Shown here: positions 29,401-39,100 of the stretch, one piece after another
Position numbering within the stretch: the first letter of the stretch is position 1
How the letters are laid out: every line of letters begins with the position of its first letter
From: Cenococcum geophilum
Taxonomy: Eukaryota
DNA length: 64,000 nt
Assembly: GCA_050273025.1 (NCBI GenBank)
Contig: CP158635.1
Location: 17,546,001-17,610,000 of the forward strand
Reading direction: 5' to 3'
Made by a program: the position numbers and the translations under genes
The notes under the pieces: model-generated
What the model was told of the DNA's origin: nothing
What the model saw: only the letters and a program-made list of their open reading frames with translations
Database searches by the model: none

Positions 29401-32146
29401 CTGGAGTAGTTCTCTTATAATATTATAGTTTTCTATAACAACTTCTCCCTGTCCTCTATCCTTTTTAATTAGTGGTATTTTAGTAAACGCGGATATAGCC
29501 TGCGGATTAAGGTATTTTAACGCTTTCTATATATTATTACTATTACTAAGGAATTCGTCCTAATAGAGCTTCCTATATCGCTAAATAGTCCTATAAAAGA
29601 GCTTCTTTACTCTTACTGCGACATTATATAGCTTAGGGTTGTCCCTTCCTTACCTCCGTATCGTGCTATTCTTATTTCTTTAGTATATATATAACTTCCT
29701 TAATATTATAAGGTCTTCGTTCCACTATCTTTTTATATATAGTAATAGTCTAGCCCATTAGCAGTGTGCTTTAAGGGCTTTATTAACCTACCTATTAAGG
29801 CAGTTAACTATTTTATCTATATCTTTTATAGGGAATCCTATCTCTTTCTATTGCTTTACGTCTTCTTATATCTTATCCTAGTTTATATTTTTAATAAGCA
29901 GCCTCTCCTAGCTCTTCTACGTGCCTATATTAACCCAGAAGCTAGTATAAATAGCTCTATAGTCTAATCCGTACTTATACTCCTAGATAGCGCACTTTAC
30001 TAATTTACTTACTAGGCCTAGGGTTGTAAGTATAAGGTCAATTATTGATATTCGCCCCGCGTTACTTTTAAATATAGGTATTCCCACTAGAAGTAGGCTC
30101 TAGAGTAACTAGTCTGCTATAAAGTTAATAATTAGTGCGCTTTCTTTCTACGTTAATATAGTACTAATATAACTTCCTCCCTATAGCAAATTATACCAAT
30201 TAAAGTTACCTATAATTACTACCTTGGTATATAGGTCGCGTAATAGTTCACCCTAAATTAGCCTATTAATTATCTCTAGTCTACTAAAGAGCTCCTCTAA
30301 GTTCTTTTCCTTAGTTCTCCTTAAACATCTGTCTAGAATATATACTAACATAATTATAAGTCTCCTTTAGCTAATATATACTACTACCGCCGTAATATCT
30401 ATTAAATCTACCTATAGCTATATAGCTGCTAGCTTTTTAGATACCTAGATATATAACCTAACTAGGGGATACCGCTACTACCTGCCTATTAGGACGAACC
30501 TTATTTACTAGGGATTTAAGCCAGCTAGTACTACTTTCCTATCTAAGAGAAAGTAGTAAGGCTCCTAGCCTAAAATAAAGTAGAAGTCCGCTAGCGCTTT
30601 ATTATTATATAGCGTATACTACGCCTCCCTACACTTCTTTATATTCGCCTAAAGGATCTAAAGTTCTCTATTTATAGCGCTATTGTATAAGAATCCTATC
30701 TATCTCTTTCCTATATACTAGGCATTTACAGTATAAGGCTTAGTAAGGACCCTAGCAGTTTATATAGTATAGATTCACTATCTTACACTAGAGATAGCCT
30801 TCCCGCCTATATATTTTATATATATTAGGTCGCGTATAGTCTCTAGCCCTATATCTAAACCTTTTATATTTATAGTATACTATAAGGGTACGTCACTCCT
30901 TAAATAGTAATATAATAATCGCGCCTCCCCTAAATAATACGTTATTTAATGTAAGCAGCTTCTCTATATCCTTCTTTATTACCACTTTAATAATTACTAA
31001 CGCATACTAGCCGCGCGGCCTTAGTTATCCCAGCTATCTTATTATATATACCTCTACCCCATTCTCTACCCTAAAGCGCTCTATAGTTAACTTACTTACT
31101 TTTCCGCTGTTAATATCTATTGCTAAAGGTACTTTAACCTAGTCTACCTTAACTATATACTACTTAGGTCCAATAAGCCTTGCCCTAAGGATATACGGTT
31201 TAAGCTATTAAGCAGTTATCTGCCTAAATATAGCTTTTTTATCTTTTTCTACTAAGAATCTAATAATGCTTACGTTGTTGCTTATTCGCTATACGCGGAA
31301 GTCCTTAAGTATAGCTCCCGTAAGCCCCTTAATATCCTTTATACCTTATATAATAGTTTACTTTACTACTTTAGTAGTAGCTACCCTTTCTATTACCTCT
31401 AAACCTACTTGGCTAACGTCTATTACTAGCTGCTAATTAGGTTCCTTAGGGTTCCTAGCGCTTATTATTTATAGCAAGGTTATTTCTAACCCTATTATAC
31501 CTCTACTGGCCGCTACTAATGCCTATAATTATATTAGAGCTAAGGAAGTGTTTAGTTACGCTTATAAGGACTAAATAGCCTTTTAGAGTTTAGCGTTTTA
31601 CTTTTTAAGGCTTTACTATTCTAATTTAATATCTATAAGGTTATTTCTAATACTCTTAATAATGCTATTCTAGTTTATAATAATGTTGCTCTGCTATACT
31701 ATAGTTTCTTTAAGGCTTTTAATAAGTTAATAAAATTTATTATAATTAATACCTCCTTCTTTATATTTAGGTAAGGTAGAGACTCTTACTATAGGGAATA
31801 GAGGCAGTATATACTATATAGCTTATAGTCCGGTTTATAGTATAGTTATTTGCTATTTAAACTATGCTAATATTTAGGCTTATATCCTTAGTGACTGCTA
31901 GGCCTCTTGCACCTTCGCGCTTGGTTTCTTTATATATCTTAGTAGAGCTGCTAGCGGGTCTAGAGGTAGTGTTACTAATATGCGTTTAGGGGTCAAAGCA
32001 GCTATTAGGGCTTTGGGGCTTCGTTTAGTGGGCTGTAGGGGCCGTCTTGTAGCGGGAACTAGCTAAACAAAAGACTAGGATTTAATTAAAAGAATGTCCG
32101 AGATGAATATCCTCCTCTTTTAAAAGTTTCCTCGCCACCTTCGTCC
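26432..32146 (-). mobile_element. Tad-like LINE copy B, head-to-tail with copy A
   Basis: Collinear with 20681-26390 throughout, with independent RIP changes and small indels; flanked by CGCTATCTCCAC (26420-26431) and CGCCATCTCCAC (32147-32158). Confidence 0.92.
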
Positions 32147-32367
32147 CGCCATCTCCACAAGGGTGTGGCCGGAGCGGGTCGGCCGCCCTCCCTGCTAGCG
32201 CACCATGCAGAACATTTAAGTGCTAATTGATTTATTAAAGCATCGGCTAGTGATTAGCCTGATGAAGTAACTACAATGCCGATGCCGGCGCCTTAAGCAT
32301 ATTAACATTCAGACTTTTGCTTCTCATATTGTAGAAAGATAGTCAACCTATTAACGAAGAAACAAAT

Positions 32368-35300
32368 TTATAAAAGCTTCCCAGTACGGCACTCCATTGA
32401 TACATAGCGTGCCTCAACTTTCCCAACTCCCAATCTTTCATATCCATTCCCTAGTGATATTTCTCGGACGATCAATATGAAATAAGTCTTCTTAGGATCC
32501 TCTTTCTCGTCTATGCACATCCCAACGACAACACATTGTCGGCAATCAATATTAACTGTCATACCCTCCGCCATATCGGCTACTACATCCACCCATAAAG
32601 ATCCCACTCTCCCTGAATCAGTGAATATGGCACGTTCTTTCCCTTCTCGTTCTACTTGACAGTTTCGAAACTCCCTAACTTTGACGATTATTGCATGTTG
32701 ATCGGTGTTAAATCGAAGATCTTTAGAGACCGGAACCATGAGCCTCGAGTTCGACAGGAAATCGATTCCTCCAGAATATGCCATCCAAGACCAGGATGGC
32801 ACCTTTCGATCTTCGTAAGCAATCCGATCCGTATTCTCCTCGTCAGACCGCTTCCACAAGAGGAGTCTAGAAAAGAAGCAATTGAAGACTCCGTATCTAC
32901 ATTCCGTCGTCAAGACTCTTTCTATGCGCTTGACCAAGCCAGAGATCGCAGCATTCCTATCGCAATCCTTGCTAAGACCACATTGTGAATACCTCTTGAA
33001 AAGGAATTATATGAAGTTAACCGTGGGATCGTAGCCTGACATCCTAAGGCTTTCAGGGAATTGGGGATCAAGGATAACACCTTCCTTCCCTGGTGGGCTG
33101 GAATACATAATCGTAATGTTAGCATAACAACTTTACCAAGACCTTTAACTTCAGCCTTACCAATGCAGTCTTGTGAAGTTTTCGCAACGTATACCTTCCC
33201 CACACTCCCAATACGTCTGGTTCGCAGAAAAATGTATCGTTCGGCGGGACAGCACTCGCTCTTGAAGTACCCAAGCTCTCTGGTTAAGGGGACCTGCATC
33301 CACATCGTTGCTGAAGTCGTCTATGCCATCGCAGACATAAAGCCGTCTGCCTGAAACATCTTGGACCTGAATATACTGAGAATTTGGGTTCCGCTCAAGG
33401 AAGCCATCTTTGCAACTAGTCGCCGAACTCGCGGCAATGGTGCAGTAGGCGGAGGCAAAGACCTTTTCCATGAGCCCAGCTTCATTTTCCCAATCCTTCG
33501 AGTCTTTTTGAATTATGCAGATAGAATCGATCCAGAGGTATTCCTTCCCGAGTTGCTGAGTCACTTCAATAGCATCCTGAAATGTCTTCGGTAGATCATC
33601 GGAGCTGAATCCTTCCAATCGATGAGGATAGTTATCCTTAGTGGTGCAGAACTGCTTCTCTTCCTCGTCCGTCAGAGTACCCCAGCGGTGCGAGAGCGCA
33701 ATATAGTCCAGTCTATTATTCTGCTCCCGTCCATTAGGTCGCTCCCGAAGTTCCAATGTTTTGGTACCAGGACCTCCAACAAAGATGACCCTCGTCGGAC
33801 AGTATGGCTTTCGCTGATTGCATTTTAGACTCCTGTCGCACTTTCGAAGCCATTCGCGCAGTAATTTGAAGTATGGAGAGCTGCTAGTAGAGGGACGAGC
33901 GATTTTATGTAAAGTAGGAGGTCCAATTTGAATATCGTTATTATTATCTGCCGATGATTCTTTTGCCAACGTGAAATAGTGAGCGATGTTGCTATATTGC
34001 CAAAAGGGGGTAAAGACGAACCTGGATCGGCACAGAGCCGAAGTATGCGTGGCCCACCTCCAGCAACTGCCAGCGCTGAATTATATCTGACTATATGAAC
34101 CGGCTGATGGCTATCACTGTGATAACGGGGTACCACATCAAGAAGCAGTTTGCAGAGAGGACAATTATTTGCCAGAGTCCGTAATTCAAAGGCAATAATA
34201 GAGCGGTTAAAAGAGAGAAGTTGTGTGCAATCTGAACACAATCGAGCGGAGATGGGATTTCTAGAAGGCGTATTCCAGGGCTCTTTGCTGAAAACGTCCG
34301 CAGCGAATCGATTATCGACAAGATACCCCCAAGGCGTCTAATTAAATACCTAAGTCAATATAATATTTAAGGGAGCTTAAATATTCAAAAACAAACACCC
34401 ACTGCCTACACCGACAAACAGACCACGGTCAGCAGCTATCACATCCCATCCATCTTAGAGAGGCCGACTTACCTCCTACACCAACAAACAGACCACGGTC
34501 AGCAGTTATCACATCTCATCCGTCTCAGAGAGGTCAATTTACACGCTACACCAACAAACAGACCACGGTCAGCAGTTATTACATCTCATCCATCTCAGAG
34601 AGGCCAACTTACCTCCTACACCAACAAACAGACCACGGTCAGTAGTTATCATATCTTATCCATCTCAGAGAGGTCGACTTACACGCTACACCAATAAACA
34701 GACTATAGTCAGCAGTTATCACATCTCATCCATCTCAGAGAAGTCAACTTACTGCCTACACCAATGAACAGACCACGGTTAGCAGTTATCACATCTTATC
34801 CATCTCAGAGAGGTCAACTTACCCACTACACCAACAAACAGACCACGGTCAGCAGTTATCACATCTTATCCACCTCAGAGTGGTTAACTTACCCACTACA
34901 CCAATAAACAGACCACGGTCAGCAGTTATCACATCTCATCCATCTCAGAGGGGTTAACTTACCTCCTACACCAACAAATAGACTACGGTCAGTAGTTATC
35001 ACATCTTATCCATCTTAGAGAGGTTAACTTACACGCTACATTAATAAACAGACTATGGTTAGTAGTTATCACATCTTATCCATTTCAGAGAGGTCAATTT
35101 ACACGCTACATTGATAAACAGACTATGGTCAGCAGTTATCACATCTCATCCATTTTAGAGAGGTTGGTTTACCCACTACACCAACAAACAGGCCATAGTT
35201 AGCAGTTATTACATCTTATTCATCTTAGGGGGGTCGGTTTATACGCTACACCAATAAACAACCTACAATTAGTGGTTATTACATCTTATCTATCTTAAAG

Positions 35301-35888
35301 AGGTTAACTTACCCACTACACCAATGAATAGACTATGGTCAGCAGTTATCACATCTTATCCATCTTAGAGAAGTCAATTTACTACCTATACCAATAAATA
35401 GACTATAGTTAGTAGTTATTACATTTTATCTATCTTAAAGAGATTAACTTATACGCTACATTAACAAATAGACTATAGTTAGTAGTTATTACATCTTATC
35501 TATCTTAAAGAGGTTAACTTACCTTCTACACTAATAAACAGACTATGGTTAGCAGTTATTATATCTTATCTATTTTAAAGAGGTCGACTTACCTCCTATA
35601 TTAATAGATAGACTATAGTTAGTAGTTATTACATTTTATTTATTTTAAAGAGGTTAATTTACCTGCTATATTAATAAATAAACTACAATTAGCAGCTATT
35701 GTTTATTTATATAGTATAATATACCTTCTAGATTTATTAGTATAGTTAAAGAATTACACTTATAAGGCTAAACTATATACATCCTATATCTTTATTAGAT
35801 TAAAATGCTAAACTTTTAATTTATAATAATAACCAACTATAAAGTTATTATAAATCCAAGAAAGGATTTATTTACCTAAAAATGCCAT
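32368..35888 (-). pseudogene. HET-domain (heterokaryon incompatibility-like) gene with N-terminal microexon array; one premature stop
   Basis: Large exons 34337-34022, 33959-33161 and 33097-32368 join in frame via GT..AG introns (34021-33960, 33160-33098). HET motifs PTRVI, YIALSHRWG, LPKTFQDAI, YLWIDSICIIQ, DWENEAGLMEKVFASAYCTIAA, LNQRAWVLQERVLSRRTIHF, PSWSW, YERLGVG; N-terminal CSDC and CPLCKLL. In-frame TAA at 33009-33007. The start at 35888 is tentative. Confidence 0.88.
34403..35700 (-). repeat. Tandem array of 70-bp units = 67-nt intron + 3-nt exon (19 microexons, 18 repeat introns)
   Basis: Minus-strand unit GTAAGTTGACCTCTCTGAGATGGATGAGATGTGATAACTGCTGACCGTGGTCTGTTTGTTGGTGTAG + NNN; exact 70-bp periodicity, with triplets at 34403+70n up to 35663. 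Confidence 0.92.
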
Positions 35889-36180
35889 TTTTAAGGTTTT
35901 TATTATACTATAACATTACTATTAGGGAACTGTTTTAATTTATTATATGGGGTAAGGTCTAGCTATTAATAAAGATAGTAATAGCTAAGGGACGCTTGCC
36001 GCGGCACTGTAAAACATAGACGGTCGCTTCGCTGCACTAAGGCCGCCAATTAGGGGTAGGCTTTACGCGAAAGGATTAAGCTGAGAAGCCGTCTTTAGTA
36101 TTATCTTCTATTAAGAATCGAGCTTCTAGTGGCTTAAGGAGGCTAGTTTACTAGCCTCTTTAATTTTGTATTATATATAA

Positions 36181-39100
36181 TGTTACGGACGCTTTAAGTA
36201 CGATATTATAACTACTTAAAGAGGAGTTAGAAGAAGCTAGTTAGTTAATATAAGTACGGTTTAAGATGGAGCTAATAGAGTTATATAACGAGGAATAGTA
36301 GCTAAGGTTATATAACGTGATCTATATAATCTATAGAATCTATATAATCCGCGATAGAGTAAATAGAGTATACGTATATTATATACAAGAAGGATTTTAT
36401 AGGAGTACGGTTATATATTTAAGGACCCTTAGTCCCTACCTAGATAGTTTCTTTCTTATAGTAATTCTTAGAATACAATTAGAGTTAATCTGTTAGGCAA
36501 CCACTCTACTAGTTATTATTACGTTATTAACTTTAATTTGTATTACCTATATACCTAGCCTAATAACAAGCCTACCGTAGTTCTTACTATAAGGTTTTAT
36601 TACACAATTACTACCTAGTTATAGTATTAAATATAAAAAGTCGAATAATATACCACTAAAGCAGCCACTATAACGCTATTAACGGCGGCAACTACTTTAA
36701 GGTTAGGTAACGACACTAGTATAGTAAACACTAACTTATAGCAACCTGTAACGGTTAGACAACTATAAGAGATAATTAACCAGTTAATAATAAATAATGC
36801 AGCGTTAAAAGAAAGGGTTAATGGGTTAGGAGTAGTAAAGATTAAGTTACCATTAATTAAGAGGTACTTAGGAGAAAGATTAAAGCTTAAGGGGTTTCTT
36901 ACTTAAATGCACTTTAAAGTTATATAAGAAGGGGTAAAGCTGCCAATATCTATGAATTAAATAGCGTATGCGGGACTATTTCTATTAGGAAGAGTACTTA
37001 AGTAGTTTAAGCCTTACCTTACGGAGATATAAGCGAATAGAATAATAACTACTAATTAGGAAGTACGATTTATATTTATAAGCTAGAAAGGGTTTATAAA
37101 GTAACTTATATAAATATTTAGAGACCTAAAGGCGGTAACTATAGCGAAAAGAAAACTCTAAGATATTACGTAATAAACCTTGGCAATTAAGTATATAATG
37201 TAGTTCTAGACGTTAGTAATATAAGTAAAGTAGAATAATAAGGCGCTTATAGCACAGTATAAGTAAGGACTTAAGGCTAAAGTCTAGGACGCGATTATCC
37301 TAATAGAAGATGCGGAAACCCTATAGGATTTAATAGATTAAGTAATTAAGATTAATAATTAGATCTACTAAAGGGAACAGGCTAAAAAAGGCTAGGATAG
37401 AGTTTTATAGTTATATAAGGCGCAGAGCACACAACAACTAAAGCTAAGTTAAAAACTATAGTATAGCGTAAAGCTAATAGACCTAAGTAGTACTAAAGAA
37501 GCCTATAAGAGATAGAGTAAAAAACCGTAGAAACTTAGAGGATAAGGATTAAGTAATTAGAGGTCTAAGAAGCAAAGGCTAAACTAAAAATCTTAGCAGC
37601 AGAAGACGTTTAGGCGGACTCTATAGCAAAAAAAATGGTTTAAAAAGGGAGGTTATATAAATTGCGGAAAATAAGGTTACTACGCCAGAGACTATAAAAG
37701 TAGTTAAAGTTACTATGCAGTAAAGGGAATAAGACTAATAGACGACATATATATATAAAGGGATAACAATATACTATAAGGAACAAAAGAATATTTAATT
37801 AAAAGTTTTGCGTTTTGTTATAATAACGTATACTAAATTTATAAGAACGCTAAGTATAGCGCAAGCTATTAGCTATAAGAGCTATATTTAGCGGAATATA
37901 AAGAAACTAATAAACTAGTTTACAGATCGGATATTAAGGATAATAGATTTAATAAAGGCGAAACATTTTATAATAATAAGGCGATAAAAGCGGCTTACTA
38001 GGAGTATATAGACCTTAAAGATGTTATATAAGAGGTAGAGGATAATTCCACTACAGAATAGGGAACATTAGTAGGGATTAAAACCCCACTAGATACAATA
38101 TTTATCGCTTCGCGAGATATAAGAGAAGTAGGATAGTAAACTACTTCGGCACTTAATAAAGGTAAAAGGCCAAAGGCTTAAGATTCTTAAGATAAGATAA
38201 GAGATAACTAAGATTCTTAAGACGAGATAAGGCAAGCTTAAGGACCTATAATAGACGATAACTAATAGAGCAGAGCAGTAGCTTAGTTTAAAACTATATA
38301 AATAAGCTTAGAATAGAGTTTCCTATAGGTATAAGATTCTTAAGACGAGATAAGTAAGATTTAAGACTCTTAAGATAAGATAAGAATACCTAAGCCTAGT
38401 TAGACTAAGGTAGGAGCAAAGCTTAAGACAGAAGCGAGCTTAAGATTAAAAATCCTATAGAACTAAGACTTCGAGACACGAATGAGGACTATTAATAAGA
38501 TTAGAGAATCTGAAATATAAATAGTAACTAGATTAGGAGATAGGTATATAGACCTAGAGGACTTACTAGGGGAATGTAGTGTTTAGCCTAAAGATCAAAA
38601 AATTAATACTAAGATTAAGAAGTAAGAAGACTTTAAGGATCTATTTATAAGACGCAAACTAAAAGAAACCATAGAAGAATTTAGGCAAAAAATTATCGTA
38701 TAGCAAGAATAGAAACTAGAAAAGAGATCTAGTATATTAGAATGTATAAGGGATAGAGCGCTAGTATAAAGGATTACTAATAGGCCTAGGGCAGGCACAC
38801 TAAGAGCTAAGTGGCTTACTAAACTGGAAAATAAAGAGGATCTAGGAATTTCTATTAGGTTTAAAGAACGATATATAAAGGGCTGTTATAATATAGTAAT
38901 AAGAAGATATTTTCTTATAAACAAGCCGTATATACTTAAGGGGCTGTACTAAAAGTGGTATAGACAACGACATAACGATAAGTAGGAAGATTTCTATATA
39001 TGGTTAGATAAAAAAGTTATCTAAAACCACCTAATTATAGAGAAGGCTATAAGTTACATTAAAGGAGCCTTAATTATAACGTTAAAAGATCTAAAGAAGC

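Follow-up and report, generated by a model that had tools for sequence, protein, structure and literature searches.

A tandem array of intron-like units and variable triplets in the 5' part of a HET-domain gene of Cenococcum geophilum

From the sequence of a 64,000-nucleotide stretch of Cenococcum geophilum (assembly GCA_050273025.1, contig CP158635.1, positions 17,546,001 to 17,610,000; hereafter the window) we describe an array of 18 tandem 70-bp units on the minus strand, located in the 5' part of a HET-domain gene. Each unit consists of 67 nt bearing the signals of a short fungal intron and of a 3-nt triplet, and the variation among units other than transitions is focused on the triplet. 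The design recurs in four further loci, the gene context is the same wherever the 3' flank is present, the junctions are compatible in phase, and the units have been reordered rapidly between copies whose flanks are nearly identical. We give about even chances to the proposal that the array represents tandemly duplicated introns separated by one-codon exons, which together code for a variable linker of charged and aromatic residues. That the units are spliced singly, that the triplets are translated and that there is any selection on them is what we infer from this arrangement.

Anatomy of the array and variation among its units

Tandem Repeats Finder reported one array at 34405-35663, with a period of 70, 18.0 copies, 83% matches and 0% indels, and no other period for it. 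The array was cut into 18 units starting at 34403 (34403-35662), which were read on the minus strand. Over its 67 nt each unit runs GTAAGT ... CTGAC/CTAAC ... TAG, and the triplet brings it to 70 bp. GTAAGT or a transition derivative of it is found at the donor position of all 18 units; GT is present in 16 and AT in two, both of the latter following a CGT triplet in the context of repeat-induced point mutation (RIP). CTGAC or CTAAC lies at about position 40-45 of the 67, some 20 nt before the end, and TAG terminates 18 of 18 units. The units thereby agree with U2-type short fungal introns, taken here as having a GTAAGT-like donor, a CTRAC branch site about 15-30 nt before a YAG acceptor, and a length of about 50-70 nt.

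A 37-nt partial unit (35700-35664; nhmmer E=0.003) extends the array to 35700, while the unit profile revealed no copy elsewhere in the 64-kb window, the next best match having E=0.27. The copies at the two edges (34438-34446 and 35692-35700) share a C (AGCAGCTAT) at a site where the 17 internal units have T (AGCAGTTAT), as is expected if edge repeats escape homogenisation. Rfam gave no match at E<=1 on window positions 32000-36500 or in two of the further arrays introduced below (L001 and L002), and the units therefore contain no known small RNA. On folding they proved less structured than mononucleotide-shuffled sequence (mean z +1.23, +0.91 and +0.46).

An earlier note on this DNA, made from its letters, had claimed that variation is concentrated in the triplet, that the intron parts differ almost only by transitions and that the order of triplets is non-periodic. 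All three statements were confirmed, as were its counts of CGT (6), GAG (4), TGG (4), GCA (2), AAG (1) and GTA (1) and the CAG at the edge of the array (35663-35665). The single GTA and AAG triplets are both placed in the half with the higher coordinates, where C->T and G->A changes are heavier. In the three triplet columns, where purines and pyrimidines are mixed, the entropy amounts to 1.46, 1.57 and 1.77 bits. Among the 67 other columns, 27 are invariant, 38 contain only C/T or A/G, and two show transversions (plus-strand column 20, with one C, and column 59, with one T), so that 38 of the 40 variable intron columns are transition-only. When reduced to purine/pyrimidine (R/Y) classes, the mean entropy of the intron columns falls to 0.009, against 0.99, 0.65 and 0.92 for the triplet columns. 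Adjacent identical triplets occur twice, compared with a shuffle mean of 2.95.

The HET-domain gene and four related arrays

The earlier note saw no scaffold protein, which was wrong: a conserved ATG exon precedes the array and the N-terminal exon of a HET gene follows it, a context which fits the interpretation of the unit as intron plus exon triplet. The gene, which belongs to the heterokaryon-incompatibility (HET) type and lies on the minus strand, comprises an open reading frame (ORF) that opens 65 nt past the last triplet, behind TTAG at 34337, and two further ORFs. It matches PF06985 (E=1.6e-30) over profile positions 1-146 of 146, and Pfam detected no other domain in the three ORFs, neither NACHT nor WD, ANK or TPR. 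The search for HET relatives yielded 1669 proteins, the best being a protein of Endocarpon pusillum with 73% identity over the HET ORF; in tblastn, P0001 (Endocarpon pusillum) showed 64% identity over 531 aligned residues. The homologues are proteins of about 550-650 amino acids (aa) annotated with HET alone. An N-terminal motif, W-x-Y-x-x-D-N-x-F-A followed by Cys pairs, was found in 45 of the 168 relatives examined.

Metagenome contigs were scanned once with a degenerate pattern of the unit, transitions being permitted, and four loci were returned. All four are 70-bp arrays of the window's family with the same 67+3 design at the same gene position. The array family is real and includes at least five loci. 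The arrays and their triplet alphabets are as follows:

Window: 18 units; CGT/GAG/TGG/GCA
L001 (metagenome contig): 42 units, array reaching the contig end; GAT/CCT/TCT/AGA/TGG/TTG
L002 (within a 175-kb metagenome contig): 32 units; AGA/GAA/TCC/TTC/TCT
L003 (metagenome contig): 19 units, array reaching the contig end; GAT/TGG/GAA/GTT
L004 (metagenome contig): 85 units; the window's four types with their transition derivatives, GGC and pyrimidine-rich types

For the entropy comparison we used 18, 36, 21, 17 and 77 units with exact 70-nt spacing from the five arrays. Mean R/Y entropy was 0.000-0.027 in intron columns versus 0.65-1.0 in triplet columns, the four metagenome arrays giving 0.79-1.0 for the latter; this contrast, in four independent arrays, is far beyond chance. 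The column statistics in five arrays thus bear out the suggestion that the intron is homogenised and the triplet is not. The four-codon alphabet claimed for the array stands for the window, but as a fixed set it fails since the other arrays use different triplets. As we read the triplets, single-base steps such as GAT-TAT-TCT-CCT and TGG-TTG-TTA could connect the types of L001 and L004.

A 3-nt spacer stands at every readable junction of the four metagenome arrays, except that in the decayed L004 one junction has lost a base. The spacer is present at 32/32 junctions of L002, where the donor is GTAAGT in 31 of the 32 listed units and GTAAGC in one. Seven L002 introns have indels, giving lengths of 51-68, and one unit of 51 nt is without the branch region. 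The indels in the arrays of L001 and L002 are all confined to the intron part. One L001 unit (at about 2540-2800) carries a 266-nt AT-rich insertion, which increases the spacing to 336 nt and leaves the flanking triplets intact; its ends look like terminal inverted repeats, as in miniature inverted-repeat transposable elements.

Based upon the ORFs and the alignments, the window locus consists of the following parts, in the order in which the minus strand is read:

35838..35888, minus strand: start-exon remnant of 17 codons with ATG at 35888-35886; aligns with the start exons of L002, L003 and L004
35728..35837, minus strand: two intron-like segments with a 3-nt remnant between them, from the alignment of five upstream flanks; both degraded, one being an extra segment of about 54 nt (window and L004 only) and the other the conserved first intron
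35725..35727, minus strand: AAG triplet, separating two introns that are unrelated to each other; the four other loci have GAG here
35666..35724, minus strand: 59-nt intron-like segment with a GTATAT donor; homologous over its 3' half to the corresponding part of the repeat unit, and hence the left array edge
35663..35665, minus strand: edge triplet CAG
34403..35662, minus strand: 18 units, each of 67 nt intron-like sequence plus a variable triplet; the C->T/G->A load climbs towards 35662
34338..34402, minus strand: last intron-like segment, 65 nt, GTGGGT ... TTGAC ... TTAG, unrelated to the unit
34022..34337, minus strand: N-terminal HET-gene exon, without Met, opening right behind TTAG; W-x-Y-x-x-D-N-x-F-A and Cys motifs
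33960..34021, minus strand: predicted 62-nt intron, GTTCGT ... CTCAC ... AAAAG, phase 1, from the ORF frame change and alignment to P0001
33161..33959, minus strand: exon with the HET domain (PF06985, E=1.6e-30)
33098..33160, minus strand: predicted 63-nt intron, GTAAGG ... GCTAAC ... CAG, from homologue alignment
32368..33097, minus strand: C-terminal exon, with a premature stop at 33007-33009 and the normal stop at 32368-32370

The 5' half of this plan, namely an ATG-start exon, an intron, the GAG triplet and an intron ending like the unit, is shared by five loci. Its 3' half, consisting of N x [triplet + 67-nt intron], a triplet, the unrelated last intron and the HET N-terminal exon, is found in 3/3 loci with a 3' flank (window, L002 and L004), where the HET gene lies directly 3' of the array; the sequences of L001 and L003 end inside their arrays. 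All junctions of the plan are in phase 0. The L002 gene, directly 3' of its array, appears to be intact (ORF 1553-408 and beyond) and is open throughout the extent of the locus; its HET exon opens behind the acceptor, and the conserved W codon of the family precedes any ATG. The L004 copy is riddled with transitions. The homologue of the last intron starts with GTAAGT in L004 and with GTAAGA in L002.

The common 5' flank contains the start context AAAATGGC, a short exon, a donor, CTAAC/CTAAT, an ATATAG/TCTAG acceptor, GAG (in 4/5 loci; AAG in the window) and a further donor. According to the five-locus flank alignment the segment after GAG starts with GTATAT, and agrees with the unit over its 3' half. 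The 18 codons of the L002 start exon are open, with an in-frame stop 6 nt ahead of the ATG, and the exon runs in phase 0 up to a GTATGT donor. This exon aligns residue 1 to residue 1 with P0063, a HET protein of Achaetomium macrosporum (8/16 identical, pairwise E=0.004), the motif W-I-H-x-N-F being equidistant from Met in both; no alignment was obtained with P0008. The start exons of L001 and L002 differ by one in-frame codon (a 3-nt indel). The extra intron-like segment of about 54 nt in the window and L004, which is absent from L001-L003, splits a further 3-nt piece (GAC in L004) off the start exon. Two 8-mers recur in the same order in this segment and in the neighbouring intron, which makes the two possible homologues.

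Decay, turnover and the fate of the triplets

The window array shows the pattern of RIP (C->T/G->A, favouring CpA/TpG), with 38% of its intronic TpG sites mutated compared with 45% in L003 and 56% in L004. Two donor Gs are mutated among its units, and its last intron starts with GTGGGT. The start-exon remnant (35888-35838) has in-frame stops that result from C->T/G->A changes, and in the HET part the frame is interrupted by the stop at 33007-33009, which replaces the Q/K of homologues. The window copy is a RIP-decayed, pseudogene-like, but still transcribed gene. The GC content of the window is mostly 0.25-0.37 and rises to 0.45-0.47 in an island at 32001-35000; the array lies at the right edge of the island, where it adjoins a region of 25-35% GC, and its transition load rises towards the AT-rich flank. 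The HET locus is thus a small island bordering long AT-rich blocks (1-32000 and 35700-64000; GC 0.25-0.37), whose strand-switching GC skew is consistent with RIP-degraded transposon sequence.

Turnover of the units is evident from the pair formed by the window and L004. Their HET exons differ by 64 transitions and one transversion in 348 nt, yet the arrays have 18 and 85 units, and the order of triplets, compared as purine/pyrimidine classes, shows no colinearity (p=0.84); none of the four array pairs was above shuffles. With nearly identical flanks, such different copy numbers and no colinearity, the earlier suggestion that the units are reshuffled holds up. Neither runs of identical triplets nor higher-order periods were above shuffles in any of the five arrays. 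The de-RIPed consensus units of the window and L002 differ by one transversion in 67 nt, compared with 31 in 327 between their HET exons; the consensus units of L001 and L003 are identical, and their alphabets differ in part. From the comparisons of consensus, alphabet and order it follows that the 67 nt are alike within and between loci and the 3 nt are not. A linkage of triplet type with variants in the neighbouring intron, which the earlier note had proposed as a check, was examined as mutual information summed over variable columns with 2000 shuffles, and nine of the ten tests gave no association (p=0.08-0.99). The sole linked case is L004 with the following intron (p=0.001), where the donor G is the top column; we attribute it to RIP context, because a triplet ending in T makes a TpG with the donor.

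Since all junctions are in phase 0, every unit would leave behind one codon if its 67 nt were removed like any ordinary fungal intron. Neighbouring sites being 3 nt apart, unit-wise splicing would necessarily be sequential. The triplets would jointly encode a linker, variable in both length and sequence, between the N-terminal motif and the HET region, and it would be rich in acidic, basic and aromatic residues (mainly D/E, R/K and W/F, with S, P, A and L). The identical introns on either side of each codon could supply the homology for unequal exchange or conversion, by which single codons might be duplicated, lost or reordered without breaking the reading frame. Exchange of this kind between identical introns would account for introns that are homogenised, for triplets that belong to a small inherited alphabet and for their lack of order. 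As to the differences of two to three bases between triplets, diversifying selection, relic codons of an older exon and intron-limited homogenisation are all possible sources. With less confidence, and on the whole leaning against it, we suggest that the introns serve as recombination handles, so that a cell-death or recognition gene generates diversity at single-residue resolution, alternative splicing included. Every donor could pair with every later acceptor in phase 0, and many linker variants could therefore arise from one gene by alternative splicing.

In keeping with one-codon exons, stop triplets number 0/19 in the window, 0/41 in L001 and 0/32 in L002. The residues encoded are 56-79% D/E/R/K/W/F/Y, versus 27% expected from codon counts, although binomial p-values for this composition are invalid as they stand because the units are duplicates. 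Relatives with ordinary exons have, at the place of the array, a linker of 18-60 residues which is loosely similar in composition (41% charged or aromatic residues versus 36% in the rest of those proteins, a mild enrichment).

The sole test which separates use of each donor from removal of the array in one piece concerns the donor G. In L001, whose transition load is moderate, the donor G lying in TpG is mutated in 0/26 units, against 68/430 (16%) of the other intronic TpG (Fisher p=0.021), a conservation that fits every donor being needed; the decayed arrays have it mutated in 2/6, 10/11 and 10/15 units. Retention of this G despite its RIP-prone context suggests that the internal donors matter, and it argues against an alternative that we consider unlikely, namely that the array lies within one long 5' intron, removed en bloc or with its internal sites acting as decoys or ratchets, so that the triplets never enter the mRNA. 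Their diversity would then be unselected, either consisting of relic codons or arising from RNA-templated conversion of only the excised 67 nt, with the 3 nt left to drift. That the boundary between homogenised and variable sequence coincides exactly with the splice sites in five arrays is what intron-limited homogenisation predicts, and the random order of triplets agrees with it. The flanking exons are conserved and in phase 0, and removal in one piece would therefore keep the frame as well; further, no spliced run of triplets was seen in the RNA contigs or the protein database. Such an intron would, however, measure 1.3-6 kb, whereas the other introns of this gene are 55-65 nt, and introns of that size are unusually long for a fungus with such short ones. 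The conservation of the GAG spacer between two non-homologous introns, in 4/5 loci and with AAG in the window, is likewise at odds with it.

RNA-library contigs (X8) cover 32319-33592, 33675-33940 and 34171-34373 and give depth in two bins of the array, and none in the AT-rich flank at 35624-36076. Since these contigs cover the HET gene and parts of the array, the locus is transcribed. The joint predicted at 33960..34021 has no RNA coverage. No joints inside the array were reported in the RNA alignments, where reads of successive 3-nt exons could not be placed by the alignment used.

Several observations weigh against unit-wise splicing and translation of the triplets. RNA on the array bins (34416-34566 and 34869-35019) could derive equally from pre-mRNA, from retained or excised introns, or from paralogous arrays. 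At the last acceptor there is a single RNA contig (34171-34373, depth 2.8); it is unspliced, following the DNA colinearly, and stops 36 nt inside that intron. The only joint seen in the gene, in an RNA contig lacking 33106-33160 (55 nt), reads GT..TG on the minus strand; it starts at the expected GTAAGG donor and stops 8 nt short of the CAG (33098-33100), out of frame; a non-canonical junction, divergence between strains and an artefact of assembly are all conceivable. Neither the RNA contigs nor the protein-database search contained RNA or protein with spliced units. The raw RNA run X21, of which about 12% was read, had zero depth on gene and array and is uninformative, with 161 reads placed. 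The avoidance of stops is not significant when duplicated types are counted once (about 20 types, P ~0.4). The resemblance to the linkers of homologues is loose, because the 56-79% of the triplet residues exceeds their 41%. The donor-G test rests on a single array, L001, with p=0.02. P0063 emerged from a motif scan of 273 proteins, four of which matched, and a family search with its N-terminal 60 residues returned only itself. The predicted N-terminus is found in none of the closest database proteins, in a search that reached proteins of 209-667 aa, and the closest of these (P0169, with 98% identity to L002, and P0121) start at internal Mets. In the excerpts of the literature searched no precedent was found for 18-85 consecutive 3-nt exons. 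Lastly, in many homologues no more than 3-25 residues precede the W-x-Y motif, and in L002 the W codon is directly followed by an ATG; given these internal starts, it is possible that translation begins in the HET exon and that the array upstream is non-coding.

This last point leads to a second alternative, which we regard as decidedly unlikely: the array would be an ordinary minisatellite, non-coding, that lies in the HET promoter or 5' flank and was seeded by an intron-bearing fragment, with translation starting in the HET exon and no splicing. The homologues that start a few residues before W-x-Y and the corresponding ATG of L002 are in accord with it, as are the unspliced RNA contig ending at 34373, just inside the segment adjoining the array, and the unchanged array of two other samples described below. 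It leaves unaccounted for the restriction of the variation to the three bases that separate acceptor from donor. Five loci have in common an upstream ATG exon followed by donor, branch and acceptor signals, and in L002 this exon is intact and resembles the start of a HET protein. The conserved W codon of L002 comes before its ATG, in frame and immediately behind an acceptor. Sequence of the array is present in the RNA library while the AT-rich flank is absent there.

Two other origins may be considered. The unit could be a mobile, introner-like element inserting beside its own copies, the triplet being a 3-bp target-site duplication or filler. The near-identical copies with perfect splice signals, and the occurrence of introner-like elements in fungi (PMC4457414), are suggestive of this, but the 64-kb window has no copy outside the array (next nhmmer match E=0.27), and all five arrays occupy one place in one gene family. 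A target-site duplication moreover predicts identical neighbouring triplets, while adjacent identity is not above shuffles in the five arrays, and shuffled sequence folds better than the units do (mean z +0.5 to +1.2). We consider this origin very improbable. Scarcely credible is the notion that the array codes for a repetitive protein by read-through on either strand: where the window's array is less mutated, its plus strand has ORFs of 93-108 aa, but 70 is not a multiple of 3, and no ORF on either strand of the arrays exceeds about 70-108 aa. The opposite strand of L001 has a stop every ~210 nt and nine ORFs of 68-71 aa, the longest L002 ORF is 78 aa across a 2.2-kb array with indels, there is no ORF >=60 aa on the intron strand, and Pfam gave HET alone in the three tested ORFs.

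The earlier note had held that an identical array in all isolates and relatives would contradict its view. DNA contigs of two other samples go part of the way towards this: the listed X5 pieces over 32218-36150 show no array differences from the window, and those from X7 show three (34827-35437) and four (35410-36205) with length unchanged. The array is thus nearly identical in these samples, and it is quite unlike the 85-unit L004. Raised depth inside the array is expected from collapsed repeated words in contig graphs and is not read as evidence of extra loci.

Two multi-copy stretches were observed beside the locus. A GC-rich segment of about 45 nt 3' of the HET gene (32156-32200) has DNA contig depth of about 430-2000, versus about 6 in its flanks, and RNA depth in the thousands. 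Nearly all reads there continue into unrelated sequence on both sides, and nearly all X21 reads fall on it; a tRNA scan of 31800-32500 detected no tRNA. Either a short dispersed repeat or a motif conserved in many transcripts is the probable explanation. At 36077-36500 the summed DNA contig depth is 30,000-230,000 versus about 6 in neighbouring single-copy DNA, which marks an AT-rich repeat of very high copy number, mutated by transitions, at the border of the locus.

Significance and comparison with known systems

If the units are spliced singly, the gene would have an architecture of dozens of consecutive 3-nt exons, unprecedented in the excerpts searched, and it would probe the lower limits of the spliceosome for exon size and intron spacing. 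Introns would in that case act as homology spacers through which a coding repeat could evolve one codon at a time. Genes of HET-type non-self recognition would have a second way to become hypervariable, by a mechanism other than that of the WD repeats of HNWD. If the array is instead removed en bloc, homogenisation of 67 nt that halts at the splice sites would point to an RNA-guided or intron-limited conversion process.

The excerpts of the literature searched contained no description of tandem introns with 3-nt exons, nor of such an array in a HET gene. The unit of HNWD (HET-NACHT-WD) genes is 126 bp, all coding, and specifies 42 residues with about four variable codons, C-terminal to NACHT. 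Hypervariable codons in homogenised WD repeats are known from HNWD of Podospora (PMC1805685, PMC2873952), and the likeness to them drawn in the earlier note is apt. Shared features are a fungal gene with a HET domain, a near-identical tandem repeat under concerted evolution, few variable codons, unstable number and order of repeats, and RIP acting on them. The likeness is one of pattern and not of sequence: here 67 of the 70 bp are intron-like, each unit has one would-be codon, the array is N-terminal to HET, and the three tested ORFs have neither NACHT nor WD.

With respect to construction, the closest parallel appears to be the gain of introns through tandem duplication in the genome, together with intron duplicates inside a single gene (PMC4974935, PMC3629103), in which a segment with splice signals is duplicated to give new introns. 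Those cases are single events, unlike the 18-85 copies exactly 3 nt apart, with 3 nt differing, described here. Recursive splice sites, or ratchet points, combine an acceptor with a strong donor that follows almost at once. Introner-like elements are dispersed in many unrelated genes and are predicted to be structured, unlike the array units, which are tandem, at one gene position and unstructured. Those of Dothideomycetes form families of near-identical spliceosomal introns (PMC4457414). Single micro-exons of 3 nt occur in hth (PMC7392893) and as the 3-base exon of MAP4K5 (PMC8632122). The adjacency of acceptor and donor is common to recursive sites, micro-exons and our units, and the spliceosome can include 3-nt exons; unlike the micro-exons, which are single and lie in long animal introns, here there would be dozens in a row between 67-nt fungal introns. 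Tandemly repeated introns with short exons between them are also seen in the SNORD115/116 small nucleolar RNA (snoRNA) host genes, but in these each intron carries a snoRNA and the exons are non-coding, whereas our units have no Rfam match and at 67 nt are too short for a snoRNA. By analogy, then, the array seems to work most like the HNWD repeats and to be built like tandemly duplicated introns, and it is a member of none of the groups compared here.

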